Origin: Clostridia bacterium
Lineage (GTDB): Bacteria > Bacillota > Clostridia > UMGS1810
Length of the DNA: 64,000 nucleotides
Assembly (NCBI GenBank): GCA_045544515.1
Contig: JAZPZD010000015.1
Coordinates: forward strand, 32,557 to 96,556
Reading direction: 5' to 3'
Shown here one piece after another: positions 4,103-49,874 of this stretch; the first letter of the stretch is position 1, and each line of letters opens with the position of its first letter. The notes beneath the pieces are model-generated. The model worked only from the letters and a program-made list of their open reading frames with translations, made no database searches and was not told the DNA's origin. The translations under genes and the position numbers were made by a program.

Positions 4103-4125
4103 AATTTAAGGAGATGCATTAAAAT

Positions 4126-5663: not shown

Positions 5664-6002
5664 ATGGTAAAACGAGGAGATATTTTTTACGCGGATTTAA
5701 GCCCCGTGATAGGTTCCGAGCAAGGAGGCATACGCCCTGTGATTGTCGTTCAAAACGACATTGGAAACAAGTACAGCCCCACAGTTATCGTGGCGGCAGT
5801 AACCTCCAGGATCAACAAGGCAAAGATGCCCACGCACATCGAGATAAGTGCACTCGAATACGGTCTTACCAAGGACTCTGTAATCCTTGCCGAACAAATC
5901 CGAACCATAGACAAAAAACGCCTCAAAGAAAAAATCGGGCGTATTGATGATAAACTTATAGAAAAGGTTAACACAGCACTTATGATAAGTTTTGGACTTT
6001 AG
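5664..6002 (+). CDS. mazF: MazF/EndoA mRNA interferase toxin
   Basis: [48 protein letters not shown]... is near-collinear with B. subtilis EndoA as I remember it. Confidence 0.95.
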
Positions 6003-6023
6003 AAACGAAAGGTGGAATTTTTT

Positions 6024-6533
6024 ATGAAAATTCAGTTAAGACACAAACTAATGCTTTTGGTAATTGCAGTTGCAATGGTATTTTCGGCGGTATATGCCCT
6101 TGCAGACCCGGGCGACAATAACGACCCGCTCGTAACTCTGTCCTACATTACCAAGACACTTATGCCCCAGATCGAAGATACAATCGACGAGAAAATCAGC
6201 GATGCTCTGAGAGACTTTAGTCCGTCTTCTTCCAACAATAATAGTTCTGACACTCACAAAACCGATAATACATACCAGATTATCACTGCCAAGGCAGGAC
6301 AGATGTTAATCGGTGACGAGGGCACAGAGATGATTTTGCGTTCGGGCGATGCCACAATAGTTTCCGGTGCACAGGGCGGTGTGTCCGACCTTACTGCAGG
6401 TCTTGACCTTACACAAGGTGCATATGTACCCAAAAACCACCTCCTCTTATCTCCCAGAAAGGACACAAGAGGTATGAACTTTGTTACAGATGCGGTGGTA
6501 ATCGTAAGAGGTTCTTACTCACTTATCAGATAA
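6024..6533 (+). CDS. secreted hypothetical protein (signal peptide)
   Basis: ORF track 6012..6533. AAAGGTGG precedes ATG 6024 (MKIQLRHKLMLLVIAVAMVFSAVYALA). I recognise no domain. Confidence 0.5.
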   Translation: MKIQLRHKLMLLVIAVAMVFSAVYALADPGDNNDPLVTLSYITKTLMPQIEDTIDEKISDALRDFSPSSSNNNSSDTHKTDNTYQIITAKAGQMLIGDEGTEMILRSGDATIVSGAQGGVSDLTAGLDLTQGAYVPKNHLLLSPRKDTRGMNFVTDAVVIVRGSYSLIR

Positions 6534-6548
6534 TTTTTTTAAAAAAGC

Positions 6549-6590
6549 AAAACCCTTTCATTTCCGTTTGGATCTGAAAGGGTTTTTATT
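6549..6590. terminator. bidirectional rho-independent terminator between convergent genes
   Basis: Stem AACCCTTTCA / TGAAAGGGTT flanked by an A-run and a T-run. Confidence 0.6.
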
Positions 6591-6591
6591 T

Positions 6592-7956
6592 TTATTTATT
6601 GCAGAGGCTCTCGCCTATCTTGTATACATCTCCCGCACCAACGGTGAGGATTACATCGCCTTCTTTGGCGTTTTGTTTTATATAATTTTCTATCTCTTCA
6701 AACTCTTTTATATAGATTGCTCCGTCGATTTTTGCTGCAAGGTCCTTGGAATGTACAATGCCTGTATCCTTTTCTCTTGCGGCAAAGATGTCTGTAATTA
6801 TCACATTTTCCGAAAGCGACAGTGCCTTTGCAAAGTCATCCATAAGGCTTATGGTTCTTGTGTATGTGTGGGGTTGGAATATGCACCACTGTCTGTTATG
6901 CTTTACATTGGATAGTGCCTTTAGCGTTGCCTCTATCTCTGTGGGGTGATGTGCATAGTCATCTATTACAAGAGCTCCGTTTACAGTGCCCTTCTTTTCA
7001 AAACGGCGTTTGGTTCCTGTGTACTTTTCAAGTCCCGATTTGATACAGTCAAAATCTATACCCATATTAAGTGCAGCAGCGGTAGTGGCAAGTGCATTTA
7101 GCACATTGTGTATACCAACCACATTAAGTACTATGTGGCCTAACTTTTCGCCATTATTATACACATCGAATTCGGGATAGCCAAAATCCGAATATGTGAT
7201 ATTTTTTGCACAGTAGTCGGCATCTTCAAAACCAAAGGTATACACCTTTGCCTTGGTGTTTTGTGCCGATTTAACTGCATACTCGCTCTCCTTGTTTACT
7301 ACTGCAAAGCCGTCCTCTTCGGGCAAAAGCGAACAAAACGAAGAAAACGCATCTACGATATCGTCTATATCCTTGTAGTAGTCCAGGTGGTCCTCCTCGA
7401 CATTCAGGATTATCGCAATTTTGGGGAAGAATTTGAGGAAGTTTCGCATATATTCACAGGTTTCTGTAAGAAAATACTCGCTCTTTCCTATTCTGAGGTT
7501 ACCGTCTATGCCATCGAGCTTGCCGCCGACCATTATGGTAGGGTCTTTTTTGTCTTCCAGCAGGATATATGCAAGCATAGAGGTTGCGGTGGTTTTGCCG
7601 TGTGTTCCCGCAACGCTTATGGCTGTGGAATAATCCTTCATAATATACCCAAGCATTGTGGCACGGTCTATGAGCTTTATCCCCTTTTGCTTTGCCGCTA
7701 TCATCTCGGGGTTGTCATCATGGACGGCAGAGGTATAGACAACAATATCCTGATTTGTGATGTTTTCTGCTCTGTGGCCTATCTGAACATCGGCACCTAA
7801 ATCTATCAGCTCCTTTACGCTGTCGGACATAGAAATATCCGAGCCCGAAACTTTGATGCCGTTATTTAATAATATCTTGGCAATACCGCTCATACTGATA
7901 CCGCCGATACCTATAAAATGTACATATTTTGTCAATGAAAACACTCCAATAAACAT
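6592..7956 (-). CDS. murC: UDP-N-acetylmuramate--L-alanine ligase
   Basis: HFIGIGGISMSGIA, GTHGKTTATSM and DDYAHHPTEI motifs. The ORF-track N-terminal extension is trimmed to ATG 7956. A TTG at 7935 with a GGAG RBS is an alternative start. Confidence 0.9.
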   Translation of the reverse strand: MFIGVFSLTKYVHFIGIGGISMSGIAKILLNNGIKVSGSDISMSDSVKELIDLGADVQIGHRAENITNQDIVVYTSAVHDDNPEMIAAKQKGIKLIDRATMLGYIMKDYSTAISVAGTHGKTTATSMLAYILLEDKKDPTIMVGGKLDGIDGNLRIGKSEYFLTETCEYMRNFLKFFPKIAIILNVEEDHLDYYKDIDDIVDAFSSFCSLLPEEDGFAVVNKESEYAVKSAQNTKAKVYTFGFEDADYCAKNITYSDFGYPEFDVYNNGEKLGHIVLNVVGIHNVLNALATTAAALNMGIDFDCIKSGLEKYTGTKRRFEKKGTVNGALVIDDYAHHPTEIEATLKALSNVKHNRQWCIFQPHTYTRTISLMDDFAKALSLSENVIITDIFAAREKDTGIVHSKDLAAKIDGAIYIKEFEEIENYIKQNAKEGDVILTVGAGDVYKIGESLCNK

Positions 7957-8089
7957 ATTGATATATAAATTATACACCCTTTTTTCCAAAAAATAAACAC
8001 TTATTTTACTTAAACTGAATATTTTTTCTGTTTTTGCAAATAATACCACTAAACAGAAGCACTAAATCTTCTTGAAAGGACTTGAATTT

Positions 8090-18531: not shown

Positions 18532-20835
18532 TTATTTTTTGTCGTTATTTCTGATTTCTACTCTTCTTATCTTTCCGCTTATAGTCTTTGGCAGTTCATC
18601 TACAAAGTCTACTATTCTCGGATATTTGTAAGGTGCGGTATTGGTCTTGACATATGTCTGAATTTCTTTTTTGAGTTCGTCTGTGCCCTCTTTGCCCTTT
18701 ACAAGAACTATTGTAGCCTTTACAATCTGTCCCCTTATTTCGTCGGGAACTGCTGTGATGGCACATTCCAGAACATACGGAAGCTCCATAATTACATTTT
18801 CTATTTCAAAAGGTCCTATGCGGTATCCCGATGATTTGATTACATCGTCTATTCTGCCCACATACCAGTAGTAGCCCTCTTCGTCCTTCCACGCAAGGTC
18901 GCCTGTGTGATACATACCGTCGTGCCAAGCCTTTTTGGTGGCTTCTTCGTCTTTGTAATACTCTGTGAAAAGACCGGGGGCAATTCTCTTGTCTGTACGG
19001 ACAACGATTTCGCCTGTTTCACCGACTTCCACGCTCTTGCCCTCGTCATTTACTATGTCTATATCATACATTGGGCTGGGTTTACCCATAGAGCCGGGTT
19101 TTGCCTTCATACCTCTCAAGTTTCCTACGGTAAGGGTGGTTTCTGTCTGACCAAAGCCCTCCATAAGCTTTAAGCCTGTTGCCTTTTTCCACTGTTCATA
19201 AACCTCGGGGTTTAGTGCTTCGCCCGCTGTTGTGGAATATTCAATGGTAGACAGGTCGTATTTTGACAAATCCTCTTTGATAAAAAATCTGTACATTGTC
19301 GGAGGAGCACAGAAGGTTGTGATATTGTACTTTTTGAACATTGGCAGTATATCGCCTGCATCAAATCTGTCAAAGTCATACACAAACACAGCCGCCTCGC
19401 AAAGCCACTGACCGTAAATCTTGCCCCAGAGTGCCTTGCCCCAACCTGTATCGGAAATTGTAAAGTGAAGTCCGTCGGGGTTTACATTGTGCCAGTATTT
19501 TGCTGTGATAAAGTGACCAAGCGGATACTTGTGGCTGTGAGCAACAATCTTGGGGTAGCCTGTTGTACCCGAACTAAAGAGCATTATGAGGTGGTCATTT
19601 CCGCAGGCGGTGTCTGCCTTTCTTTCGTATACATCGCTAAAGCGGTACATCTCGCTGTCAAAGCTGTGCCAGCCCTCTCTCTCGCCATGAGAGATAACCT
19701 TGATTTCCACGCTCGGGCATTTTGCTGCCGCATTTTCTGCGTGACGGGCAGTTTCGCCGTCGGCGCTGCAAACGATAGCCTTAACCGATGCAGCGTTAAA
19801 TCTGTATTCAAAGTCGTGCTCTACAAGCTGATTTGTCGCGGGAATTGTGATTGCCCCTATCTTGTGAAGTGCAAGGATAGAGAACCAGAACTCATAGTGT
19901 CTTTTGAGTACCAGCATAACCACATCGCCCTTTTTGATGCCAAGACTTTCAAAGTAGTTAGCTGTCATATTGGAATACTTTTTGAGGTCGCTAAAGGTAA
20001 ATCTTCTTTCTGTTTTGTCTGCAGCAACATGCATCATAGCCACTTTGTCGGGGCATTTTTCTGCAAGAGCATCAACGCAGTCAAAGGCAAAGTTGAATGT
20101 ATCGTCGTTTTTGAAGCTGATTTCTTTAAGACGCTTTTTGTCGTCCTTTACAGTTTCTACAAACTTTTTGTATACAGCGGTTTTGGGCTGTTCTACAACA
20201 ATCTCCTCTTTGGTATGTTCATATGCGGGCTCGCTTATTTCCTCGCCGTGCATTACCATAGCATAGATTTCTACATCGTCTCCGCCTACGGCAACTAATG
20301 CGTGAGGCATGGTACTGTTGTAATAGATTGTGTCGCCCGGTTCGAGCACTTCTACACTGTCACCTATATAGGCCTTGAGCTTTCCGGAGATTACTATATC
20401 AAACTCCTGACCGCTGTGTGTTGCATAATGAGGATTTTTTTCATCCTCTTCACTATACGGGATTTTTACCCAAAACGGCTCTGCAACTTTTTTCTTAAAC
20501 ATTGCCGCAAGGTTTTTGTATGTGTAGCCCTCTCTTCTTGTAATGGGCAGACCCTCGCCTTTTCGGGTTAATTCGTAGCCGGACAGTGTGGGGCTTGAGC
20601 CTTTCAAAAGGTCTGTGGGGTCCACATTAAACGCCTTGGCACATTTGTATATAAATGTAAAGTTAAAATCCCTCTTGCCGCTTTCATATTCCTTGTAATC
20701 ATCTACGCTGACGCCTGTATTTTTTGCCATTTCTTCCACAGAGAGCGAAAGCAATTCTCTCGTTTCTTTAATACGCAGGGCAACCTCCATAAGCTGCTTT
20801 AATTCCTGCGCTTCCATAAATACTTCTCCGTTCAT
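18532..20835 (-). CDS. fusion protein: XRE-type HTH + cupin domain + AMP-forming (ACSM/MACS-like) acyl-CoA synthetase
   Basis: 767 aa. The N-terminus LSLSVEEMAKNTGVSVDDYKEYESGKR is an HTH. HSGQEFDIVISGKLKAYIG...GDTIYYNSTMPHA is a cupin. LFSSGTTGYPKIVAHSH, YHTGD and SSGYRIGPFEIE are adenylate-forming core motifs. Confidence 0.85.
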   Translation of the reverse strand: MNGEVFMEAQELKQLMEVALRIKETRELLSLSVEEMAKNTGVSVDDYKEYESGKRDFNFTFIYKCAKAFNVDPTDLLKGSSPTLSGYELTRKGEGLPITRREGYTYKNLAAMFKKKVAEPFWVKIPYSEEDEKNPHYATHSGQEFDIVISGKLKAYIGDSVEVLEPGDTIYYNSTMPHALVAVGGDDVEIYAMVMHGEEISEPAYEHTKEEIVVEQPKTAVYKKFVETVKDDKKRLKEISFKNDDTFNFAFDCVDALAEKCPDKVAMMHVAADKTERRFTFSDLKKYSNMTANYFESLGIKKGDVVMLVLKRHYEFWFSILALHKIGAITIPATNQLVEHDFEYRFNAASVKAIVCSADGETARHAENAAAKCPSVEIKVISHGEREGWHSFDSEMYRFSDVYERKADTACGNDHLIMLFSSGTTGYPKIVAHSHKYPLGHFITAKYWHNVNPDGLHFTISDTGWGKALWGKIYGQWLCEAAVFVYDFDRFDAGDILPMFKKYNITTFCAPPTMYRFFIKEDLSKYDLSTIEYSTTAGEALNPEVYEQWKKATGLKLMEGFGQTETTLTVGNLRGMKAKPGSMGKPSPMYDIDIVNDEGKSVEVGETGEIVVRTDKRIAPGLFTEYYKDEEATKKAWHDGMYHTGDLAWKDEEGYYWYVGRIDDVIKSSGYRIGPFEIENVIMELPYVLECAITAVPDEIRGQIVKATIVLVKGKEGTDELKKEIQTYVKTNTAPYKYPRIVDFVDELPKTISGKIRRVEIRNNDKK

Positions 20836-20879: not shown

Positions 20880-21165
20880 ATAAAAAATTCCGCCTCAAAG
20901 AATCCTTTGAGACGGAATATATATTCCGCGGTACCACTCAAATTGCATAAGTCTTACCTTATGCCACTCACAGACTCCAACAAGTCCTATGCACTAACGC
21001 AGCATCTCTCGGGATACGCCTACTTGGGACAAAGCCCTTTGGGATATCCGGCTCGGAAGTGATGGGTCATTGGGAAGTTCAGTCATTGGCTCGCAGCAAC
21101 CGCCAACTCTCTCAAAACCTTGCAACCCGACCGTCTTCGTCACAGCCTTTCAATATTAAACTATG
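20880..21165 (-). promoter_or_regulatory. T-box riboswitch leader, probable Ile (AUC) specifier
   Basis: Minus-strand read: K-turn GGCUGUGA.../...CCGAGCC, AGAGAG bulge, distal loop GGUUGCUGCGA, specifier loop ...CCC-AUC-A (plus 21061-21063), AGUA-II box, GCGUUAG F-box-like element, T-box GAGUGGUACCGCGG (20937-20927), and terminator CCGTCTCAAAGG...CTTTGAGGCGG plus a U-run. Confidence 0.8.
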
Positions 21166-27713: not shown

Positions 27714-29243
27714 TCAGTCGCCAATCTTTTCTTCCATTTCCTTTTGTACTTCAGGAATAGCTGACAAAATCGGAGCAACATCTTTTCCTTTTATTTTTCT
27801 GTCAATATAGTTTTTGGTAATCTTCATTACTGTTCCCGAAAGAACCACAACGCCGATAAGGTTGGGTATCATCATAAGTCCGTTGAATGTGTCAGAAATA
27901 TCCCAAGCAAGTGACGATGTAAGAAGTGCACCAAACATAATCATAACAAGGTGGATTACCTTGTAAACCTTGATTGTCTTTACGCCAAAGAGGTATTCCC
28001 AAGCCTTTGAACCGTAGTGGTCCCAGCCAAGAACTGTGGTAAAAGCAAAGAGAAGTATTGCAATAGCCACAAACTTACCGCCGATATTTGCAAAGCCAAA
28101 TACTGTGTTGAATGCATCAGCAACAAGTGTTGCATCGCCTGTGATTGTACCCATAGGAGCTGTAATGTCATAAACGCCCGATGTAAGAACTACAAGTGCT
28201 GTAAGAGTACAAACAACCATTGTGTCTGCAAATACTTCAAATATTCCCCACATACCCTGCTGAACAGGTTCTTTTACGCTGGAGTTGGAGTGAACCATTA
28301 CCGAGGAACCAAGACCAGCCTCGTTGGAGAATACTCCACGCTTGAAGCCCTGAACCATAACCTCGCGGATAATAGCACCTGTAACACCGCCGGCAATGGA
28401 AATAGGCTTAAATGCTGTAACAAATATAGCCTTGAATGCAGGAAGTATGTTTGCATAGTTTATGCCAACGATAACAATGCTTCCCAAGATAAAGAGAACA
28501 ACCATAAAGGGAACTACTTTTTCTGCAAATGCAGCAATTCTCTTGAGACCGCCAAGAACTATAAGAGCTGCTATTACAACAAGAACTATGCCGATTATTA
28601 CAGAATAGAGTGTAACACCTTCGTAGAGCGAAATATTTACAAGTGACTGTATGGGGAATGCAGACTCTATGTTTACAACGATTTTGTTAATCTGACCCAT
28701 TGCACCGATACCAAATGATGCAAGAAGTGTAAATATGGAGAAGAGCACTGCCAAAACCTTGCCTATTGTCTTGCAACCTTTTTTGGAGCCAAGACCGTCA
28801 CGGAGATAATACATAGCACCGCCGGACCATTCGCCGTCAGCATTCTTGCGGCGATAGTAGATACCGAGGACATTTTCGGAATAGTTTGTCATCATACCGA
28901 AAAATGCCGCAATCCACATCCAGAAAACCGCACCGGGTCCGCCTATGCAGATAGCTGCAGCAACACCGGCAATGTTACCTACGCCGATTGTAGCAGCAAG
29001 AGCTGTACAAAGAGCCTGGAAAGGGGAAATGGACTTGTCTTTGGAGTGTCCTATAACATCTTTGTTAAAAAGACTTCCGATAGTTTTTCTCCACCAAAGT
29101 CCGAGATGCGAAATCTGGAAAACCTTGGTGATAACCGTTGTGAGTACTCCTGTAAAAAGAAGAAGTACAAGACCGAGAGTTGTCCATACAAAAGTGTTAA
29201 TTTCACCATTGTACTGTTCGAGTGCACTTAAAAATTGTGTCAT
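27714..29243 (-). CDS. alanine/glycine:cation symporter (AGCS family)
   Basis: Start MTQFLSALEQ behind GAAAGGTGG. Contains ...SPFQALCTALAATIGVGNIAGVAAAI..GGPGAVFWMW... Confidence 0.9.
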   Translation of the reverse strand: MTQFLSALEQYNGEINTFVWTTLGLVLLLFTGVLTTVITKVFQISHLGLWWRKTIGSLFNKDVIGHSKDKSISPFQALCTALAATIGVGNIAGVAAAICIGGPGAVFWMWIAAFFGMMTNYSENVLGIYYRRKNADGEWSGGAMYYLRDGLGSKKGCKTIGKVLAVLFSIFTLLASFGIGAMGQINKIVVNIESAFPIQSLVNISLYEGVTLYSVIIGIVLVVIAALIVLGGLKRIAAFAEKVVPFMVVLFILGSIVIVGINYANILPAFKAIFVTAFKPISIAGGVTGAIIREVMVQGFKRGVFSNEAGLGSSVMVHSNSSVKEPVQQGMWGIFEVFADTMVVCTLTALVVLTSGVYDITAPMGTITGDATLVADAFNTVFGFANIGGKFVAIAILLFAFTTVLGWDHYGSKAWEYLFGVKTIKVYKVIHLVMIMFGALLTSSLAWDISDTFNGLMMIPNLIGVVVLSGTVMKITKNYIDRKIKGKDVAPILSAIPEVQKEMEEKIGD

Positions 29244-29278
29244 GGTATGTAACCACCTTTCAAAAATTAATAAAAATA

Positions 29279-29512
29279 GCCGCCACAAATAATGGCGACT
29301 CCGGAATTTAGATGCAGACTATACCTGTGCTGTTATTAAAAGTATCTGCTCCGTCCTTTTGCCTGAGAGATTCGGTTTTTTGATAAAAACCTTGCACCTT
29401 CGGCACCCGTTATGTCGGGATTCTCCGGATTGCCATCGGATTACAGTCCTGCCGGAATATCGGCACCTGAGAGTGTTACTCCTTCGGTAAGGCAAAGCCT
29501 TTTTCCTGCAAC
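29279..29512 (-). promoter_or_regulatory. tandem glycine riboswitch with terminator expression platform
   Basis: Minus-strand read. Aptamer 1: ...GCCUUACCGAAGGAGUAACACUCUCAGGUGCC..GGCAGGAC. Aptamer 2: CCGGAGAAUCCCG..CGGGUGCCGAAGGUGCAAGG..CUCUCAGGCAAAAGGACGGAG. Then GTCGCC-ATTATTTGT-GGCGGC plus a U-rich tract immediately before the RBS. Confidence 0.8.
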
Positions 29513-35578: not shown

Positions 35579-35593
35579 GTGGTGGAGACGAGG
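35579..35593 (-). repeat. 15-bp direct repeat (proximal copy, inside the ssrA 3' end)
   Basis: GTGGTGGAGACGAGG. Confidence 0.6.
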
Positions 35594-35927
35594 AGAATCG
35601 AACTCCTGTCCGAAAATTCATCCATCGGAGGCTCTCCGAGCGCAGTTTGTGGTCAACATTCCCTCAAGTTAAAGCCCACAAACAAGCTTTAAATCTTGGT
35701 AGCTTCATCTTTCATGGTATGCTCAAAGCTTTGCATACTCACGTTCACCACTCGATGACGCTCTTATCCCGACCGTGGTCCTTCAGGTAAGAACGGCTAC
35801 CTGTAATTAGGCAGCGTAAGCTAAATTTTTGTTAGCGTTTAATTTTAAAAGTTAGGCTTGTTAAAGCGGTTCCCGCCGCTGCTCGCTCCTCTGACTTCAA
35901 AACCCCCGTCGAAACCATTGCGTCCCC
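35580..35927 (-). ncRNA. ssrA: tmRNA
   Basis: Minus-strand read: 5' GGGGACGCAATGGTTTCGACGGGGG...; tag reading frame GCT AAC AAA AAT TTA GCT TAC GCT GCC TAA (ANKNLAYAA); 3' ...GGAGTTCGATTCTCCTCGTCTCCACCA. The promoter TTGACA-17-TATACT lies upstream at ~35966-35994. Confidence 0.9.
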
Positions 35928-41241: not shown

Positions 41242-41420
41242 TATAAATCACCATTTTTCTAATAAATTCGCAACTATATTATTGTATCATAACGCACATA
41301 CGGTGTCAATGAATAATACGACAAATTTCGAACAAATTACAAAGAATTCTTGCTGATACAAGTAACATATTGCAAAGCTCAAACATAGTATAAAACAAAC
41401 CGTAGAAAAGTGGTGTACTG

Positions 41421-42203
41421 ATGTTATCTGTAGTATTAAACGGTATGTTTTTGCCATTGATAGGAACTACTGTGGGCTCTATGTGCGTGTTTTTTATAAA
41501 AGATACCTTGTCAAAGAAAATCGAACGCTCTCTTCTGGGATTTGCGGGAGGCGTGATGATTGCCGCATCTGTGTGGAGCCTCATTATACCGTCTATTGAG
41601 TCAAGTGAGCATTTGGGATTTTTCTCCTTTGTGCCTGCTGTAGCGGGATTTTGGATTGGGGTAATCTTTCTTCTTGCTGTAGACAGATTTATACCTGTGA
41701 TATATAACAATTCCGAAAATACCGACGGCAAAAGAGGCTCTTTTGAAAAGACCTATATGCTCATTTTTGCAGTTGTGCTGCACAACCTGCCCGAGGGTAT
41801 GGCGGTGGGTGTGGTTATCTCTGCGTTTTTAAACGGAAACAGCGATATTTCGGCTGTTACGGTAATAACTCTGGCACTGGGTATTGCCATACAGAACTTT
41901 CCCGAGGGGAGCATCATCTCGATGCCTCTTGCCGCAAATGGTGTAAAAAAGAAAAAAGCCTTTCTGTACGGCTTTTTGTCGGGAGTTGTGGAGCCTGTGG
42001 GGTGCATTGCGACCATTGTTTTTGCCCATTTTGCAGCACCGATGCTTCCGTATCTGCTGTCTTTTGCGGCGGGGGCGATGGTGTTTGTGGTTATAAAAGA
42101 GCTCGTGCCCGAAATAATCGAAGAGGATAGTTACCGCATTGGCACAATTATGTTTACACTTGGTTTTACTCTTATGATGGCTCTTGATGTGGCTCTGGGA
42201 TAA
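41421..42203 (+). CDS. ZIP-family divalent metal transporter (ZupT/GufA-like)
   Basis: HNLPEGMAVGV and IQNFPEGSII motifs, 8 TM-like segments. Confidence 0.9.
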   Translation: MLSVVLNGMFLPLIGTTVGSMCVFFIKDTLSKKIERSLLGFAGGVMIAASVWSLIIPSIESSEHLGFFSFVPAVAGFWIGVIFLLAVDRFIPVIYNNSENTDGKRGSFEKTYMLIFAVVLHNLPEGMAVGVVISAFLNGNSDISAVTVITLALGIAIQNFPEGSIISMPLAANGVKKKKAFLYGFLSGVVEPVGCIATIVFAHFAAPMLPYLLSFAAGAMVFVVIKELVPEIIEEDSYRIGTIMFTLGFTLMMALDVALG

Positions 42204-42523
42204 TGAAGGTGCTGCAAAAATTTTGCAGCACCTCAGACTGTCGAAAAAGAACGCACCGCAAAGTGAATATAAAAAATCAATGCTCATTAGTAAGGAATAT
42301 TATAATAATTACTTATGAGCATTTTTTTATGTAGCTTTTGTCATAAATGCCAAAAGCTAATATTTTATACACTTTGCTTACTTCGTCATCGCTCATTGCC
42401 GTACTTTTGTACTGCCTGCTTCGCGCTTCCTCGTCTGCGTCCATTTTCGTTCGTCTCATCAGCGTGTCGACTTTATCGACACGCTGATGTGCTGCAAAAA
42501 ATTTTTTACAGCACCTTTTATAA

Positions 42524-43090
42524 TTATATGTTGTATCCCAAATCAAACGCCTTGAGATTAACCTCGAGGAATTTGGGGGGAACAGTGGTCTTTATTGTTT
42601 CTACCCATTTTTCATAAGCGATATCGGTGTTTTTCGCCATAACGCCGATAAGAACAACATTAACCGCCTTGATGTTGCCTGCCTCTTTGGCAAGAGAGAG
42701 AGCATCTATTACACTTATATCCAGCTTTTCGCTGATTTTCTGCTCGATATTTTCGGGGTACTTCATAGCACCTGTAATTACGGGCATAGGATTGATGTTT
42801 TGTCCGTTTGCAATGAGCTTGCCGCCTTCTTTGAGATACGGAATTGCTCTGTATGCCTCGAGCATTTCAAAGGCAAGAATAATATCTGCCTCGCCCTCAT
42901 CGATTATAGGCGAATAAACCTTGTCGCCGTACTTTACATAGGTTACCACGCTTCCGCCTCGCTGGCTCATACCGTGTACCTCGGAAACCTTTACATCGTA
43001 GCCTTCGTTTATTACTGTATTTCCTAAAATTCTGCTGGCAAGAAGAGTACCCTGACCGCCAACGCCTACTATCATAATATTTTTAGTCAT
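42524..43090 (-). CDS. iorB: indolepyruvate:ferredoxin oxidoreductase subunit beta
   Basis: MTKNIMIVGVGGQGTLLASRILG..., 188 aa, AGGAGG RBS, follows iorA. Confidence 0.85.
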   Translation of the reverse strand: MTKNIMIVGVGGQGTLLASRILGNTVINEGYDVKVSEVHGMSQRGGSVVTYVKYGDKVYSPIIDEGEADIILAFEMLEAYRAIPYLKEGGKLIANGQNINPMPVITGAMKYPENIEQKISEKLDISVIDALSLAKEAGNIKAVNVVLIGVMAKNTDIAYEKWVETIKTTVPPKFLEVNLKAFDLGYNI

Positions 43091-43103
43091 TTCTTTTGTC
43101 CTC

Positions 43104-44837
43104 CTACTCTTCTTTTTCTATTGCACCAAACGGGCAAACATTTACGCAAAGTCCGCAGCCGTTGCACTGGGTTGCATCTATTACAACTTTGTCATCTTTG
43201 ATGCTTATTGCAGGACAGCCAAGCTTCATACACATCTTGCAGTTTTTGCACTTGTCGGTAATAGTGCAGTGTCCTATATATTTTACACTCTTTAAAAGTG
43301 CGCAGGGTCTCTGGGCTATTATTACAGAGGGTTCTTCCCTTTCTACCTCGGTCTTTACAACCTTTTCAAATTCCTTTACATCAAAGGGGTCGCAAACTAC
43401 AACATGATCTATACCCACAGCCTTGCAAAGAGCAACGAGGTTAACCTGCTTGGTTTCTTCGCCTCTTATTGTGTAGCCTGTGGTGGGGTTATCCTGGTGG
43501 CCTGTCATACCTGTTATGGAGTTATCCAGGATTATTACGGTGTTATTGCCCTTGTTGTACACGATATCCACAAGACCTGTGATACCCGAATGCATAAAGG
43601 TGGAGTCGCCTATTACAGAAACGAGCTTTTTGTTAAACTCGCTGCCTCTCGCCTTTGCCATACCGTGAGCCGCACTTACAGATGCTCCCATACAGATGGT
43701 GGTATCAACCGACTGCAGAGGCGCTACTGCACCTAATGTGTAACAGCCTATATCGCCCGAAACCACAAGACCGAGCTTCTTTAGTACATAGAATGTTCCT
43801 CTGTGAGGGCATCCTGCACACATAACAGGCGGTCTTACGGGGATTGGCTCATCTATTGCGGCCTTGGAGGGTGCATCTTCATTAAGAACTGCCTTTTTAA
43901 TCATATTGGGGGTGTATTCGCCAAGGAGTGTAAACACATCTTTGCCTGTAACATCAAGACCGAGAGCTTTGCAGTGGTCCTCAATTACGGGGTCTAATTC
44001 TTCTATAACATATACCTTGTCATATTTGTTGGCAAAGTCTATAATCTTCTTTTCGGGCAGCGGATAAACCATACCGAGCTTCAAGAAGTCCGCCTTGTCG
44101 CCGAGGGCTTCTTTGGCATACATATATGCAACACCTGCTGTAATTACGCCAATCTTTGAGCCGTTTTCTTCTACACTGTTAAGGGGTGTGGTTTCTGCAA
44201 ATTCTTTTAACGCCTTTATTCTGTCTTCTACCACAACATGACGCTTGATAGCATTTGCAGGCATCATTACAAACTTGCCTATGTTCTTTTCGTAGTCCTT
44301 AACCTGTGCATCTTTTCTTTCGCCAAGTTCCACTAAACTCTGCGAGTGCGAAACTCTGGTGGAAAGACGGATAAATGCAGGTGTGTCAAACTCTTCCGAA
44401 AGTTCAAACGCCATACGGGTGTATTCCTTACATTCCATAGAGTCGGCAGGCTCGAGCATCATAATCTTCGATGCCTTGGCATAGTGTCTGGAATCCTGCT
44501 CGTTCTGTGACGAGTGCATACCGGGGTCGTCTGCAACACAAAATACAAGTCCGCCGTTTACACCTGTGTAGCTTACGGTAAACACGGGGTCTGCCATTAC
44601 ATTAAGACCTACATGCTTCATACAGCTCATAGCTCTTGCTCCGCCGATTGATGCACCTATTGCAACCTCTGCGGCAACCTTTTCGTTGGGTGACCACTCT
44701 GCATATATTTCTTCAAACTTTACTATTTCTTCTGTTATTTCTGTACTTGGAGTACCGGGATATGATGCAACAACATTTACCCCCGCCTCATACGCGCCTC
44801 GCGCTACGGCAGCGTTACCGAGTAACAATTTTTTCAT
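43104..44837 (-). CDS. iorA: indolepyruvate:ferredoxin oxidoreductase subunit alpha
   Basis: 577 aa. TPP-type 2-oxoacid:Fd oxidoreductase body (GDIGCYTLG, GDSTFMHSG) plus C-terminal 2x[4Fe-4S] motifs CKNCKMCMKLGCP / CNGCGLCVNVCP. Confidence 0.9.
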   Translation of the reverse strand: MKKLLLGNAAVARGAYEAGVNVVASYPGTPSTEITEEIVKFEEIYAEWSPNEKVAAEVAIGASIGGARAMSCMKHVGLNVMADPVFTVSYTGVNGGLVFCVADDPGMHSSQNEQDSRHYAKASKIMMLEPADSMECKEYTRMAFELSEEFDTPAFIRLSTRVSHSQSLVELGERKDAQVKDYEKNIGKFVMMPANAIKRHVVVEDRIKALKEFAETTPLNSVEENGSKIGVITAGVAYMYAKEALGDKADFLKLGMVYPLPEKKIIDFANKYDKVYVIEELDPVIEDHCKALGLDVTGKDVFTLLGEYTPNMIKKAVLNEDAPSKAAIDEPIPVRPPVMCAGCPHRGTFYVLKKLGLVVSGDIGCYTLGAVAPLQSVDTTICMGASVSAAHGMAKARGSEFNKKLVSVIGDSTFMHSGITGLVDIVYNKGNNTVIILDNSITGMTGHQDNPTTGYTIRGEETKQVNLVALCKAVGIDHVVVCDPFDVKEFEKVVKTEVEREEPSVIIAQRPCALLKSVKYIGHCTITDKCKNCKMCMKLGCPAISIKDDKVVIDATQCNGCGLCVNVCPFGAIEKEE

Positions 44838-44853
44838 ATAGCTTATCCTCTCT

Positions 44854-46491
44854 TTATTTTATTTCGTTCTGCTTTGCTACGACACTCTCGCCGCAGTAAA
44901 TCTGTCTTAACTTGGGTTTTTCTATCTTGCCTGTGGGGTTTCTGGGAACATCGGCAAAGATAACCTTGTGCGGTCTTTTGTATCTGGGCAGATCCATACA
45001 GAAATCTGTGATTTCTTCTTCTGTTAACTCTACCCCTTCTTTTGCCTGAATGATTGCCGCAGCAATTTCGCCAAGTCGTGCATCGGGAAGTCCTATTACG
45101 GCAACATCGCTTATTTTGTCGTGCTTTCTTAAAAAGTCCTCTATCTGTACGGGATACAGGTTTTCCCCGCCCGAGATGATAACATCTTTCTTGCGGTCTA
45201 CAAGGTAGATAAAGCCGTCTTCGTCTTCGGATGCCATATCTCCTGTAAAGAGCCAGCCGTCACAGAGCACCTCGTTTGTTGCCTTTTCGTCTTTGTAATA
45301 TGCAGTCATTACGCCGGGGCCTTTGACAGCAAGCTCGCCTACATCGCCTTTTTTGACTTCGTTTCTGTTTTCGTCAACTATTTTGGTCTGCCAGAGATAT
45401 CCCGGCTTGCCTATTGCACCTACCTTGTGCTCATTTTCCATACCCAAGTGCACACATCCGGGTCCGATAGACTCGGACAGTCCGTAGTTGGTGTCGTACA
45501 TATGATTTGGAAAGTAGGATTTCCATCTTCTTATAAGGCTGGGGGGAACAGGCTGTGCACCTATGTGCATAAGACGCCACATAGAAAGGTCATAGTCCGA
45601 AAGATTGATTTCTTCTCTTTCTATTGCATCCAATATATCCTGTGCCCATGGAACCAGAAGCCACACGATAGAGCATTTTTCATCGGACACTGCCTTCAAA
45701 ATCCACTCGGGCTTGATACCCTTTAAGAGCACCGCCTTGCCGCCTACCAGAAAGCTGCCGAACCAGTGCATCTTGGCTCCTGTGTGATACAGGGGCGGTA
45801 TGCAAAGGAACACATCGTCTTTGGTCTGTTTGTGGTGGTCCTGCTCTGTCATTGCCGCGTGGACAAGGCTCTGGTGTTTATGAATAATAGCCTTGGGGAA
45901 ACCCGTAGTTCCCGAAGAAAAATATATTGCGGCATAGTCGTCATCTGTAAGCTTGATTGCAGGGCTCTTTGACGAGCAGTACGCAACAAGCTCATCATAG
46001 CTCTCTGCAAATGTGGGGCAATCCTCTCCCAGATAAAGCCACATCTTGACACGCTTTACCTTCGAGCAAATCTGCTCTACTCTGCCTGTAAATTCGGGTC
46101 CGAAGATGATAGCATCGGCATCGGCAAGCTCCAGACAATATTTGATTTCGTCTGCGGCATATCTGTAATTAAGCGGTACCGCCATAGCACCTGTTTTGAG
46201 TATTCCGAAATATATAGGCAGCCACTCTATGCAGTTCATAAGAAGTATGGCAACCTTGTCGCCTTTTTTGATACCTCTTGTTAAAAGGAAGTTTGCAAAG
46301 CGGTTTGCCTGCTTATTAAACTCACTCCAGGTGATTTCCTTTCTGTACGCCTCTCTGGGGTTTGTTTCAATAAGTGAATACTCCCTCCAGGTCATTGGAG
46401 ACTGTTTTTCCAGTTTGGGATTTATCTCCACAAGGCTGACATCATTGGGATAAAAATCTGCGTTTTTTTGTAGAATTTCTGTAATAGGCAT
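44854..46491 (-). CDS. AMP-forming acyl-CoA ligase (FadD/4CL-like class I adenylating enzyme)
   Basis: YFSSGTTGFPKAIIHKH, YHTG, TGDMASEDEDGFIYLVDRKKDVIISGGENLYP, PRNPTGKI. Confidence 0.85.
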   Translation of the reverse strand: MPITEILQKNADFYPNDVSLVEINPKLEKQSPMTWREYSLIETNPREAYRKEITWSEFNKQANRFANFLLTRGIKKGDKVAILLMNCIEWLPIYFGILKTGAMAVPLNYRYAADEIKYCLELADADAIIFGPEFTGRVEQICSKVKRVKMWLYLGEDCPTFAESYDELVAYCSSKSPAIKLTDDDYAAIYFSSGTTGFPKAIIHKHQSLVHAAMTEQDHHKQTKDDVFLCIPPLYHTGAKMHWFGSFLVGGKAVLLKGIKPEWILKAVSDEKCSIVWLLVPWAQDILDAIEREEINLSDYDLSMWRLMHIGAQPVPPSLIRRWKSYFPNHMYDTNYGLSESIGPGCVHLGMENEHKVGAIGKPGYLWQTKIVDENRNEVKKGDVGELAVKGPGVMTAYYKDEKATNEVLCDGWLFTGDMASEDEDGFIYLVDRKKDVIISGGENLYPVQIEDFLRKHDKISDVAVIGLPDARLGEIAAAIIQAKEGVELTEEEITDFCMDLPRYKRPHKVIFADVPRNPTGKIEKPKLRQIYCGESVVAKQNEIK

Positions 46492-46517
46492 AAGTCTTTA
46501 TGTCCTTTCAAATTTAT

Positions 46518-48062
46518 TTACTCGCCGAGAGATTTCTTGGCAAAAACCACAACCTCGCGGTCATAACATACAAACATTTCTTCTGTCTTTTGTGCGTCCA
46601 TTTTAGGTGTAACAAGGCTCACTATCGGCACTATTACAAGGCCGCCGAGCATTGCTATAACACCGCAGTTAATGGGAGACTGGAGTATAACGGGAAATGC
46701 GGGTCTAAACAGCATATTAAGTATCATTATACCTGCACCGAATACAAAGCTTATCCATACAGACGCTTTGGTTGCCTTTTTCCAGTACAAGCCATATAAG
46801 AACGGTGCTAAAAATGCCCCTGCCAAAGCACCCCAGGATATACCCATCATATCGGCAATGGCACTTAATTTGTCTTTGTTAAGTGCAATATATGCAGATA
46901 TTACAATGAATACTACTATGAGAACTCTCATTATGAAAACCTGTTTTTTGTCTGTCATATTCTTTACAATGTGGTCTTTTAAAAGGTCCAGTGTAAGAGT
47001 GGAACTCGACGCCAGTACAAGTGAAGAAAGTGTAGACATAGATGCCGAAAGCACCAGTATTATAACAACTGCAATGAGTATATCGGGAAGTCCCGAAAGC
47101 ATTGTGGGAATAATTGCATCAAATCCGCCCTCGATAGAGCCATCGGCAAGAAATGTTAGTTTGTCTGTAAAGAGTCTTCCGAAACCGCCGAGGAAATAAC
47201 AACCTCCTGCAACGACAAGAGCAAACACTGTGGAAATGATTGTACCCTTGGTGATATCCTTTTCGCTCTTTATGGCGTAGAACTTCTGCACCATCTGCGG
47301 AAGTCCCCAGGTGCCAAGCGATGTGAGTATTACTACAAACAAAAGATTTAACGGGTCGGGTCCGAAGAATGAATTAAAAGCACCCGGTGCCATACCCTCT
47401 CCCTCAATCTGTGCAAGTCCGTTTAAGGAAGCTATAAAACCTCCGTTTTTGGAAAGGACTGCAGCAATAACAGCAACAATTCCAAAGAGCATTATGATAC
47501 CCTGGATAAAGTCATTGATTGCAGTTGCCATATATCCGCCTGCTATAACATAGATACCCGTAAGTACTGCCATAATTATTACGCACATAGAGTAATCTAT
47601 GCTTGGAAACGCCATAGAGAAAAGTCTGGAAAGACCGTTGTACAGCGATGCGGTGTACGGTATAAGGAATACAAAAACTATAACCGATGCCGCGATTTTT
47701 AGTGCAGGACTTAAGAACCTTTTGCCAAAGAATTCGGGCATTGTGGCACTGGATAAGTGTTGGCTCATAAGTCGTGTTCTTCTGCCTAATACTATCCAGG
47801 CAAGAAGAGAGCCCAAAACGGCATTGCCTATGCCTATCCAGGTTGACGCTATGCCGAACTTCCAGCCAAACTGACCTGCATATCCTACAAATATAACAGC
47901 GGAAAAATACGATGTTCCGTATGCAAAAGCGGTAAGCCAGGGACCTACCGAACGGCCGCCTAACACAAAACCGCTGACATCTGTGGAATTCTTACGGCAG
48001 TAAAGCCCTACCGCAATCATAACCGCGAAGAAAACAATGAGTAAACCTAATTTCAGTAACAT
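46518..48062 (-). CDS. sodium:solute symporter (SSS) family transporter
   Basis: Start MLLKLGLLIVFF behind AAAGGGTGG. About 13 TM helices. ...GGRSVGPWLTAFAYGTSYFSAVIFVGYAG... is typical of SSS. Confidence 0.85.
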   Translation of the reverse strand: MLLKLGLLIVFFAVMIAVGLYCRKNSTDVSGFVLGGRSVGPWLTAFAYGTSYFSAVIFVGYAGQFGWKFGIASTWIGIGNAVLGSLLAWIVLGRRTRLMSQHLSSATMPEFFGKRFLSPALKIAASVIVFVFLIPYTASLYNGLSRLFSMAFPSIDYSMCVIIMAVLTGIYVIAGGYMATAINDFIQGIIMLFGIVAVIAAVLSKNGGFIASLNGLAQIEGEGMAPGAFNSFFGPDPLNLLFVVILTSLGTWGLPQMVQKFYAIKSEKDITKGTIISTVFALVVAGGCYFLGGFGRLFTDKLTFLADGSIEGGFDAIIPTMLSGLPDILIAVVIILVLSASMSTLSSLVLASSSTLTLDLLKDHIVKNMTDKKQVFIMRVLIVVFIVISAYIALNKDKLSAIADMMGISWGALAGAFLAPFLYGLYWKKATKASVWISFVFGAGIMILNMLFRPAFPVILQSPINCGVIAMLGGLVIVPIVSLVTPKMDAQKTEEMFVCYDREVVVFAKKSLGE

Positions 48063-48096
48063 TTTTACCACCCTTTCTAAAATTCAGGGCGAAAAC

Positions 48097-48385
48097 AAAA
48101 AAATCCCGCCCTCAAGAAATAAATCCAGAGGACGAGATATAATCTCGCGGTACCACCTCAGTTTATCGGTTTCTCACAAAACCGACCTCATCAGGTACTA
48201 AATAATACCTTAGTTCTATAACGGGAACTCCCGTTGCAGCCTACTTGGACAAACGCCCTTTTGGTGCACTGCTCGCAAGATGTATTCGGATATGCCATCG
48301 TCATTGCCTCGCACCACCCGGCAACTCTCTCCAAACTCAAAACACGCCTACTTGTTCTCGGTCATCGCATTTTCTTATGAAATTA
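48097..48385 (-). promoter_or_regulatory. T-box riboswitch leader, Tyr (UAC) specifier
   Basis: Minus-strand read: K-turn UGCGAUGA/CGAGCA, S-turn AGUA/GAA, AGAGAG bulge, distal loop GGGUGGUGCGA, specifier loop GAA-UAC-A (plus 48282-48284), AGUA-II box, CCGUUA F-box, T-box GGUGGUACCGCG (48157-48146), terminator CTCGTCCTC...GAGGGCGGG plus U7. Confidence 0.85.
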
Positions 48386-48390
48386 AATAA

Positions 48391-48419
48391 ATTCTACCAC
48401 ACAAAACACCCAAAGTCAA
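48391..48419 (-). promoter_or_regulatory. sigmaA-type promoter of the Tyr T-box operon
   Basis: TTGACT, 17 nt, TAGAAT. Confidence 0.55.
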
Positions 48420-48452: not shown

Positions 48453-49469
48453 TTATTCCGTTCTTACAAAGCTATCGGAAATCTCTTCTACATACAATTC
48501 ATATGCGTCGGTGTACTCCTTGGGGAATGCCATCTCAAAATAACGGATATATTCATCAACATAGCACATCTGATAGTAGCATATGCCGTCTTTTTCCATA
48601 TTGAGAGCAAACCAGTCCTCGCCCAGGGTATCATACAGATTGACACCGCCGATGTCCGATTTGGTATTTGCCAGAACCTCGTCTGCACTTAACTTGTTTG
48701 AGTTTTTCATAGCACCGATATCGATATACGCACTCTTGTCCTTGGCAACATAACGAAGTCTGTCGCCAAAGTCGTTTTTGAATTTGAAATCCGAAGGAAG
48801 TGCACACTTGTAATTAAAATCACCGTTTGTAAGGGTGGTGTAGCTCCTGTCGGCATTGCCGGGGGTTAGTCCGTATGCAAATTCAAAGTCGGCAGAGGAA
48901 TTTTCGTCGGATTCTGCCTCCATAGAGTTTTCTTCTTTATCTTTATCTTTCTCTTTATCTTTATCGGGAGCTTCCTCGTCCTTTGTGTCTTGGGATTTCT
49001 TTTGCTCATTGTTTGTGATATCCTGCGAAGTAGAAAGCTCTTCTCCCTCGGTGTTTTCGCTATTCATACTGTTTATCGCAACAAAGCCCAGTATCGTAGC
49101 GAGGGCTATTACCACAACAACCAAAAAGGCTATTATAAATATAAACACATTTTTTTGATTGGTATTCTTCTCTCGGGGGACATCAGTTTTTGCCCTTTGG
49201 GGTGCACTTGCAGCTTGCTTTCTGGGTGCTGTTTCGGCAGGCTTGACGCTCTTTTTCTGCGTCGGCGGGGTCTCCCTTTTGGGACTTGGGGCGTCGTTTG
49301 AAGCGTATACCCTTTCATAATCCTTTATTGTAGGTATTGCCATAGTCTTGCCCAATGTGTCGCCCAAGCTGTCATTTTTTGTTTCGCCTATGTAACTTCC
49401 GCATTCACCGCAAAAAACCGTGCCGTCATCATAGGTTTTGCCGCATTTCGGACATATCATATCAAACAC
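48453..49469 (-). CDS. zinc-ribbon membrane protein with acidic low-complexity linker and unknown C-terminal domain
   Basis: MFDMICPKCGKTYDDGTVFCGECG, one TM helix, a KDKEKDKDKEE tract, 338 aa. Confidence 0.6.
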   Translation of the reverse strand: MFDMICPKCGKTYDDGTVFCGECGSYIGETKNDSLGDTLGKTMAIPTIKDYERVYASNDAPSPKRETPPTQKKSVKPAETAPRKQAASAPQRAKTDVPREKNTNQKNVFIFIIAFLVVVVIALATILGFVAINSMNSENTEGEELSTSQDITNNEQKKSQDTKDEEAPDKDKEKDKDKEENSMEAESDENSSADFEFAYGLTPGNADRSYTTLTNGDFNYKCALPSDFKFKNDFGDRLRYVAKDKSAYIDIGAMKNSNKLSADEVLANTKSDIGGVNLYDTLGEDWFALNMEKDGICYYQMCYVDEYIRYFEMAFPKEYTDAYELYVEEISDSFVRTE

Positions 49470-49484
49470 TCCGTTTCAAATAAA

Positions 49485-49874
49485 TCATTCCAGATTTTTG
49501 CCGCAATTTGCACAAACCTTGGCATCGGGCTCATTTACCTGTCCGCAGATACACGCATCGGCATCAGTAGATGTGCCTTTTTCGTTATCTATTTCTTCAA
49601 TCTTTGCTCTGTATTTTTTTATGAGGTCATTTCGGCTGCATATTTCCTCAAGATAACTCATATAGTCGGCTCTGGGAATATCGCCTTCGGGATTTAAAAC
49701 ACACCAGTTATAGAGTTTAACTCCGATTTCGCTGGAGATATCCTTGATTTCATTTTCCAGCTTTTTTATAGAAGACTTGAGCCTGGTCTTTTTGATAGCA
49801 GCCTTTGAGCCTGTACCTACTGTCTTTAAGCCACTATTTATTCCTGATATAATTTTATTTGTAAAATCTGACAT
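49485..49874 (-). CDS. hypothetical coiled-coil protein with C-terminal zinc ribbon
   Basis: 129 aa, ...CICGQVNEPDAKVCANCG; 15 nt upstream of the previous gene. Confidence 0.5.
   Translation of the reverse strand: MSDFTNKIISGINSGLKTVGTGSKAAIKKTRLKSSIKKLENEIKDISSEIGVKLYNWCVLNPEGDIPRADYMSYLEEICSRNDLIKKYRAKIEEIDNEKGTSTDADACICGQVNEPDAKVCANCGKNLE

Follow-up and report, generated by a model that had tools for sequence, protein, structure and literature searches.

Which task is served by an operon that lies behind a tyrosine-sensing riboswitch and encodes a transporter, an acyl-CoA ligase and a ferredoxin-dependent oxidoreductase, and in which direction do its enzymes run? The question is raised by a locus in a 64,000-nucleotide (nt) stretch of a Clostridia bacterium genome (contig JAZPZD010000015.1, positions 32,557 to 96,556), which is called the window throughout. 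Between positions 42,524 and 48,419 of the window, on the minus strand, a T-box leader precedes the genes for a sodium/solute symporter of the SSS family, an AMP-forming acyl-CoA ligase of the FadD/4CL class and the two subunits, IorA and IorB, of an indolepyruvate (arylpyruvate):ferredoxin oxidoreductase (IOR). A sequence-only reading of this DNA had suggested that the operon rebuilds tyrosine from an imported arylacetate, and our analysis makes it likely that the operon serves the tyrosine-starvation-induced salvage of 4-hydroxyphenylacetate to tyrosine.

Two properties of the known families are important for this question. T-boxes read through when their cognate tRNA is uncharged, and IORs are reversible and accept all three arylpyruvates. 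Phenylacetate, 4-hydroxyphenylacetate, indoleacetate and branched short-chain acids can be turned into amino acids by reductive carboxylation, as was established by labelling in the rumen decades ago. To our knowledge, this bacterial physiology has no assigned regulated locus.

The leader is a T-box with a tyrosine specifier

On the minus strand, the leader RNA at 48374..48125 matches the entire Rfam T-box model (Rfam: RF00230; model positions 1-219), with 118.2 bits (E=1.6e-25) and thus above the gathering score, which is 93. The following features were located:

48391..48419, minus strand: sigma-70-type promoter TTGACT-17-TAGAAT with a TG-extended -10 element, 10/12 match
48125..48374, minus strand: T-box leader with Stem I, Stem II/IIA-B region, Stem III and antiterminator (Rfam: RF00230)
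48281..48287, minus strand: 3' side of the specifier loop, GAA-UAC-A (GAA at 48287-85, A at 48281), from the covariance-model alignment
48146..48157, minus strand: T-box core GGUGGUACCGCG, from the sequence and the Rfam match
48096..48138, minus strand: intrinsic terminator hairpin (48138-48103) followed by U7, from folding

The leader sequence has a GAUGA/CGAG K-turn region in Stem I, the S-turn halves AAGUA...GAA, the bulge GGAGAGAG, which is the AG bulge of Stem I, the distal loop GGGUGGUGCGA and the F-box CCGUUA. The antiterminator folds in the classic form with a computed 7-nt bulge; in T-boxes, the UGGU bulge of the core pairs with the ACCA at the 3' end of the tRNA. The terminator hairpin has a folding energy of -20.5 kcal/mol (z=-4.67), and none of 200 shuffled sequences was equally stable. 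The arm CUCGUCCUC is the 5' arm in the terminator and the 3' arm in the antiterminator, so that the two folds are mutually exclusive. The score, the parts of Stem I and the alternative antiterminator and terminator folds all place the leader in RF00230, and every part named in the sequence-only reading is found again in the sequence.

The tyrosine codon UAC is located at 48284-48282, in the specifier position of the covariance-model alignment. The sequence-only reading had named this alignment as the check that could turn up a different codon, and the outcome is UAC again. No tRNA-Tyr gene is present in the 64-kb window.

Conservation of the leader and of the gene order

The comparison set consists of 80 loci (numbered with the prefix L), one genome per species, with ligase orthologues of 82-92% identity. 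They come from gut metagenome-assembled genomes (MAGs) of goat, sheep, deer, cattle, buffalo and human (Hadza, Nepal). There are hundreds of ligase relatives with 83-95% identity, and the few of them that are named are Ruminococcaceae, Oscillospiraceae and Acutalibacteraceae MAGs. All ligase orthologues with 82-95% identity belong to uncultured Oscillospiraceae/Acutalibacteraceae-type MAGs, and they adjoin iorAB wherever downstream sequence exists. Judged by these relatives, the organism is a member of an uncultured Oscillospirales clade from the gut of herbivores and humans. The herbivore and human gut is rich in arylacetates, and it is where the reductive carboxylation physiology was first seen by isotope labelling.

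Using the window leader as nhmmer query, a T-box was found in 59 of the 80 loci. In an alignment of 60 leaders the sequence AAUAC is invariant, and the codon is UAC in 60 out of 60; the next base is A (45), C (14) or U (1). One base past the codon lies a 5-bp helix that occurs in at least eight pair combinations (CAGAA:UUCUG, CGGAA:UUCCG, CGCGA:UCGCG and others). Because this covarying helix stands beside UAC, the reading frame of the specifier is fixed, and the tyrosine assignment made from the letters now rests on both the covariance model and 60 orthologous leaders. The same reading had expected phenylalanine and tryptophan specifiers in syntenic loci as well. None was found in the 60 orthologous leaders, which represent close relatives with ligases at least 82% identical, and all 59 related T-boxes are specific for tyrosine.

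The order ligase-iorA-iorB is kept almost everywhere in the 80 loci, usually with the SSS gene in front. Most relatives have the symporter, while about ten lack it and others carry paralogues of 42-66% identity in its place; between loci its identity ranges from 42 to 90%. In approximately ten loci (L009, L011, L017, L032, L034, L038, L057, L072, L074 and L075) the T-box directly precedes the ligase gene, with no transporter gene in between. Ligase and IOR are therefore tyrosine-regulated cargo and not passengers behind a transporter, and the claim that the T-box gates the unit of ligase and iorAB holds for this conserved core.

Two side observations concern the surroundings of the core genes. 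In L009 (6561-7904) and L011 (8413-9759), which are closely related, a 448-amino-acid (aa) open reading frame (ORF) with weak similarity to GH26 lies between iorA and iorB and separates the two subunit genes, which are adjacent elsewhere. Two zinc-ribbon membrane-protein genes (48453-49874, minus strand) are located immediately upstream of the T-box promoter in the window, and this pair is syntenic, with 27-51% identity, in the closest relatives L001-L007, L009, L011-L013, L017 and L080.

The transcription unit comprises four genes

The genes downstream of the leader and the features at the end of the operon are:

46518..48062, minus strand: SSS symporter with ATG start (Pfam: SSF, 189 bits)
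44854..46491, minus strand: AMP-forming acyl-CoA ligase, 545 aa (Pfam: AMP-binding and AMP-binding_C)
43104..44837, minus strand: IorA, IOR alpha subunit (TIGR03336, 752.4 bits, cutoff 650.9)
42524..43090, minus strand: IorB, IOR beta subunit (NF005325, 294.5 bits, cutoff 230; Pfam: POR, 144 bits)
42452..42514, minus strand: two tandem hairpins directly 3' of the iorB stop codon (-37.4 kcal/mol, z=-9.4)
41421..42203, plus strand: convergent ZIP transporter gene, facing the end of iorB

The ORF listing also has an in-frame GTG at 48071 as alternative start of the symporter. Both IOR subunits score above their curated equivalog cutoffs, and the pair shows the two-subunit architecture with the cofactor domains in the alpha subunit, where POR_N, TPP_enzyme_C and Fer4 provide for thiamine pyrophosphate and two [4Fe-4S] clusters.

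From 5' to 3' the gaps between the genes are 26, 16 and 13 nt, in agreement with the gaps and the four co-directional genes described before. Terminator-like patterns within the operon do not exceed the chance expectation (10 compared to 8.1+/-2.7 in shuffled sequences), which bears out the statement that there is no internal terminator. The hairpins after iorB have no U-tract; based on their fold they probably mark the end of the transcript and would act as a terminator. The minus-strand ORFs 41829-42287 and 41306-41731 were considered as further members of the operon and rejected, as they have no family matches and lie antisense to the ZIP gene. The unit therefore comprises exactly four genes.

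A predicted route from 4-hydroxyphenylacetate to tyrosine

With charged tRNA-Tyr, transcription from the TG-extended promoter would end at the leader terminator. With uncharged tRNA-Tyr, the GUA anticodon would pair with the UAC specifier and the free ACCA end with the UGGU bulge, and the paired tRNA would stabilise the antiterminator and allow read-through, as is known for the T-box family. The Na+/solute symporter would then most likely import 4-hydroxyphenylacetate, which the AMP-forming ligase would convert to 4-hydroxyphenylacetyl-CoA. IorAB would use reduced ferredoxin and CO2 to form 4-hydroxyphenylpyruvate in the reverse reaction; that the two subunits belong to the IOR family is shown, while the direction here is what we infer. 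Finally, an unlinked housekeeping aminotransferase would yield tyrosine.

We argue for the anabolic direction because of the T-box logic, the AMP-forming ligase and the reasoning of a study in which an IOR adjoining an AMP-forming ligase was argued to be biosynthetic, as catabolic arylpyruvate routes use phosphate acyltransferase (Pta) plus kinase or ADP-forming ligases (PMC13285125). These three grounds sustain the anabolic part of the sequence-only reading, and the chemistry from 4-hydroxyphenylacetate to tyrosine remains our deduction. The anabolic reading is thus well supported as a prediction, not proven.

Points against the salvage route and alternative explanations

A number of observations weigh against this route or parts of it, and the first group concerns the ligase. 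It belongs to the class I adenylate-forming (AMP-forming) enzymes (Pfam: PF00501, 253 bits; PF13193, 49 bits), and its best relatives in the PDB are FadD13, FadD5, feruloyl-CoA synthetase and 4CL (E 1e-73 to 1e-48). Its score is below the cutoff of every NCBIfam model, with the best matches to FadD-type subfamilies, and an exact-sequence look-up returned no record. PaaK is the known type of arylacetate-CoA ligase, and we used AMP-binding together with AMP-binding_C_2, a length of about 430-450 aa and TIGR02155 as its signature. With 545 aa and AMP-binding_C (Pfam: PF13193), the window ligase falls outside the PaaK type, and the best 25 of its 107 NCBIfam matches include no PaaK model.

In at least 45 loci (L001, L002, L008, L010, L013, L016, L020 and more than 35 others) a PaaK-family ligase and a 140-aa ACT-pair protein continue the operon after iorB. 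They start about 30 nt after iorB, for example in L056 (9022-10829), and the relatives' PaaK has AMP-binding and AMP-binding_C_2 domains and 536 bits to TIGR02155. Neither gene is found in the 64-kb window, and the distribution is patchy, since both are also missing in some of the closest relatives (L004, L007 and L012). In favour of the salvage route, this extension ties the cluster firmly to arylacetate chemistry, and the ACT protein hints at amino-acid feedback or allosteric control. As PaaK is part of the operon in most relatives, the FadD-like enzyme is a second ligase whose substrate is not self-evident, and it could act on another substrate. Of the proposal that it activates an arylacetate, the AMP-forming class stands and the substrate has become less obvious; we still predict it to be a 4-hydroxyphenylacetate-CoA ligase.

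Secondly, the regulation is not universal, as 16 related species with intact upstream sequence have the operon and no T-box. An Rfam search of twelve of these 16 loci yielded no T-box match at the gathering score, and the T-box core motif is present in none of the 16. Most of them keep the same promoter directly before the first gene. Relatives share this homologous promoter, TTGACTTT...TGTGnTAAAAT, as a conserved element, and in a sister species (L028, ~3325-3392) it stands as TTGACTTT..CTTTAAnGyGnTAAAAT directly before the SSS gene, with no leader in between. The same leaderless arrangement is found in L031, L041, L044, L051, L053, L067, L071, L076 and L077. Since the promoter is shared with leaderless sister species, a gain or loss of the riboswitch has taken place within a single clade of close relatives. 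The palindrome-like CTTTAAC-GC-GTTAAA of the T-box-less loci was considered as a repressor operator and rejected, because loci with a T-box have the same TTGACTTT...CTTTAATGTGnTAAAAT upstream of it. The motif is the conserved promoter, and all that the loci without a T-box are missing is the leader.

A separate observation was made in L037 (~4560-5000) and L039 (~1260-1704), where a conserved hairpin leader of about 300 nt connects a strong promoter to the ligase gene and no SSS gene is present. This leader has no credible Rfam match at E<=1 and no T-box core, and its short ORF is not rich in tyrosine.

Thirdly, no aminotransferase gene is linked to the operon. The remaining two points, on the symporter and on the substrate range of IOR, lead to alternative explanations.

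The NCBIfam scores of the symporter are 205 bits for PutP, 151 for PanF, 65 for MctC and 25-40 for ActP, all below the cutoffs. It can be assigned to the SSS superfamily only, outside the phenylacetate/acetate permease branch (ActP/Ppa/MctC-like), and its scores bring it closer to the symporters for proline and pantothenate than to those of the ActP/monocarboxylate branch. The likeness to phenylacetate permeases on which the sequence-only reading drew is accordingly reduced to the level of the superfamily. Its predicted role is the import of 4-hydroxyphenylacetate, with tyrosine as an alternative substrate. In the latter case, direct tyrosine uptake would stand beside arylacetate salvage and 4-hydroxyphenylacetate would enter the cell otherwise. 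We regard this as unlikely, though it is the strongest of the alternatives: the best family score is that of a proline symporter, T-box-controlled amino-acid transporters are common (PMC2494555), and the symporter is dispensable or swapped in many relatives. However, the second-best match, PanF, is a carboxylate carrier, and all of the scores are far below the cutoffs. Moreover, an anionic arylacetate needs a carrier at gut pH, and the position of the symporter gene, first in the operon and beside the ligase, fits the supply of a substrate.

A somewhat less probable alternative is a general salvage of aryl acids for phenylalanine, tyrosine and tryptophan, in which only the sensor is specific for tyrosine, and IOR and the ligase or ligases would also accept phenylacetate and indoleacetate. 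The substrates of known IORs include phenyl-, hydroxyphenyl- and indolepyruvate (PMC13285125), so a tyrosine-only sensor is no proof of tyrosine-only chemistry, and most relatives have the PaaK-family ligase beside the FadD-like one. On the other hand, the 60 leaders are uniform in their tyrosine codon, a gate of this kind would cut off phenylalanine and tryptophan salvage whenever tyrosine is replete, and the window operon is without PaaK.

A catabolic operon of the oxidative Stickland type, in which IOR oxidises tyrosine-derived 4-hydroxyphenylpyruvate and ligase and transporter handle the product, is very improbable: IOR is reversible and works oxidatively in Pyrococcus and B. thetaiotaomicron (PMC13285125), but a T-box that is ON under scarcity of its amino acid is the opposite of what a tyrosine-degrading pathway needs, characterised catabolic clusters conserve ATP with phosphate acyltransferase and kinase or with ADP-forming instead of AMP-forming ligases, and no Pta or kinase gene was found among the operon genes by ORFs and family matches. 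Out of the three alternatives, only the tyrosine-importing symporter and the salvage for three amino acids stay plausible, and each of them is a version of the salvage of aryl acids under a tyrosine T-box.

A parallel system with isoleucine and valine specifiers

The window contains another T-box in front of a ligase gene:

21152..20905, minus strand: second T-box (Rfam, 94.8 bits) with the isoleucine specifier AUC at 21063-21061
20835..18532, minus strand: 767-aa fusion of an XRE-type helix-turn-helix (HTH), a cupin and an AMP-forming ligase, downstream of the isoleucine T-box

The best family match of the 767-aa fusion is MbcS (464 bits, below the cutoff). The carbon skeletons of isoleucine and valine correspond to the two substrates of MbcS. 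In S. aureus, this enzyme selectively activates 2-methylbutyrate and isobutyrate (PMC10026030).

A metagenome scan yielded 80 relatives of the HTH-cupin-ligase fusion, of which the closest carry T-boxes (L081-L096, L111 and L115). The Rfam gathering threshold missed these isoleucine and valine T-boxes, so an E-value threshold was used instead, at which they have 66-90 bits and E-values of 1e-12 to 1e-18. The specifier is AUC (Ile) in 12 leaders and GUC or GUA (Val) in five, and the helix beside it covaries. L084 has two T-boxes (82-334 and 2737-2983), one with an isoleucine and one with a valine specifier, and each apparently precedes its own copy of the HTH-cupin-ligase gene. L082 has two tandem cupin-ligase paralogues (3001-5268 and 5682-8012). 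Judging from the arrangement of the genes, both loci look like a duplication combined with a re-tuned riboswitch specifier.

In several distant relatives the alpha (POR_N and PFOR_II) and beta (TPP_enzyme_C) subunits of a VOR-type oxidoreductase adjoin the HTH-cupin-ligase gene, namely in L085 (6394-8216), L097, L099, L127, L128, L133, L139, L154 and L159. L095, which has an isoleucine specifier, has a LeuA/CimA-like gene downstream instead of VOR. The same rule thus appears twice independently: a T-box for an amino acid gates a ligase for the acid that is one carbon shorter, followed by carboxylation by a ferredoxin oxidoreductase. By analogy, the isoleucine/valine T-box with its MbcS-like ligase, in part with VOR, supports the general logic of the tyrosine operon.

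Comparison with known systems

The cluster iorAB-paaK is the canonical one of Bacteroides and archaea. The Bacteroides cluster, iorAB with a PaaK-type AMP-forming ligase, is similar to most relatives of the window locus, which keep iorAB-paaK-ACT. In contrast to them, it has no amino-acid-sensing riboswitch, and the FadD/4CL-class ligase and the symporter are added upstream only in the loci described here. Compared to the Bacteroides cluster, the window operon has lost PaaK and ACT or never had them.

A comparable pathway is genetically defined in Methanococcus maripaludis. As Porat et al. are cited in PMC4162585, the IOR MMP0713/0714 lets aryl acids feed aromatic amino acid synthesis, with a two-subunit enzyme and the proposed sequence arylacetate, aryl-acetyl-CoA, arylpyruvate and amino acid. 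The claim that no genetically defined locus exists for this physiology goes too far in view of this archaeal case. The system differs in being archaeal, in serving all three aromatic amino acids and in having no T-box and no linked SSS or FadD-type ligase.

Classical tyrosine T-boxes, such as those of B. subtilis tyrS and of the tyrosine biosynthesis operon and phenylalanine-4-hydroxylase of the B. cereus group, share the family, the UAC specifier and the logic of tyrosine supply (PMC2494555). Their cargo is a tRNA synthetase, shikimate genes or a hydroxylase, whereas the cargo of the window T-box is a module for ferredoxin-dependent reductive carboxylation. The HpdDEFG-HpdJ-HpdK system of C. 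scatologenes also interconverts 4-hydroxyphenylpyruvate, 4-hydroxyphenylacetyl-CoA and 4-hydroxyphenylacetate. Unlike the window operon, it runs in the opposite direction with a VOR-like four-subunit enzyme, a phosphotransacylase and a kinase, and it is induced by growth on tyrosine.

Our literature search found no work linking T-boxes to IOR or to other 2-oxoacid:ferredoxin oxidoreductases, as the sequence-only reading had supposed for ior operons, though an older mention or an uncommented TBDB entry may exist. Within the searched literature, the T-box on an ior operon, the presence of a FadD/4CL-class ligase and a symporter in it, and the isoleucine/valine T-box ligase system appear to be undescribed. 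Taken singly, riboswitch, enzyme and physiology are already known; new are the T-box control and the gene set.

Other RNA features of the window

A glycine riboswitch aptamer (29343-29438, minus strand, 60 bits) is located upstream of a sodium:alanine symporter gene of the AgcS type (27714-29288, minus strand), which is an ordinary, known pairing. Furthermore, the window contains a tmRNA gene (35580-35927, minus strand, 149 bits) with the tag peptide ANKNLAYAA, and genes for tRNA-Lys(CTT), tRNA-Leu(TAA) and two tRNA-Met(CAT).

Implications

For an IOR operon, the T-box names the amino acid that is served and the response to its shortage, and so provides evidence on both the anabolic direction and the specificity for tyrosine. 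In addition, a new ligase subfamily and a transporter emerge as candidates for biochemical tests. Considered side by side, the tyrosine system (SSS, FadD-like ligase and IOR) and the isoleucine/valine system (HTH-cupin-MbcS-like ligases, often beside VOR) suggest that specifier codons could be used as a general guide to the substrates of salvage ligases. We give an even chance to the broader proposal that, in uncultured gut Firmicutes, specifier codons label modules for the salvage of carboxylic acids to amino acids, which would take up the fermentation acids of neighbouring organisms and routinely rebuild amino acids by ferredoxin-driven reductive carboxylation. If this is true, the riboswitch reveals the substrate specificity of ligases that could not be assigned otherwise, and a physiology known from rumen labelling in the 1960s gains bacterial genes and regulation. 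4-Hydroxyphenylacetate is the precursor of p-cresol. The finding would also have a bearing on cross-feeding in the gut and on the fate of host-relevant metabolites.

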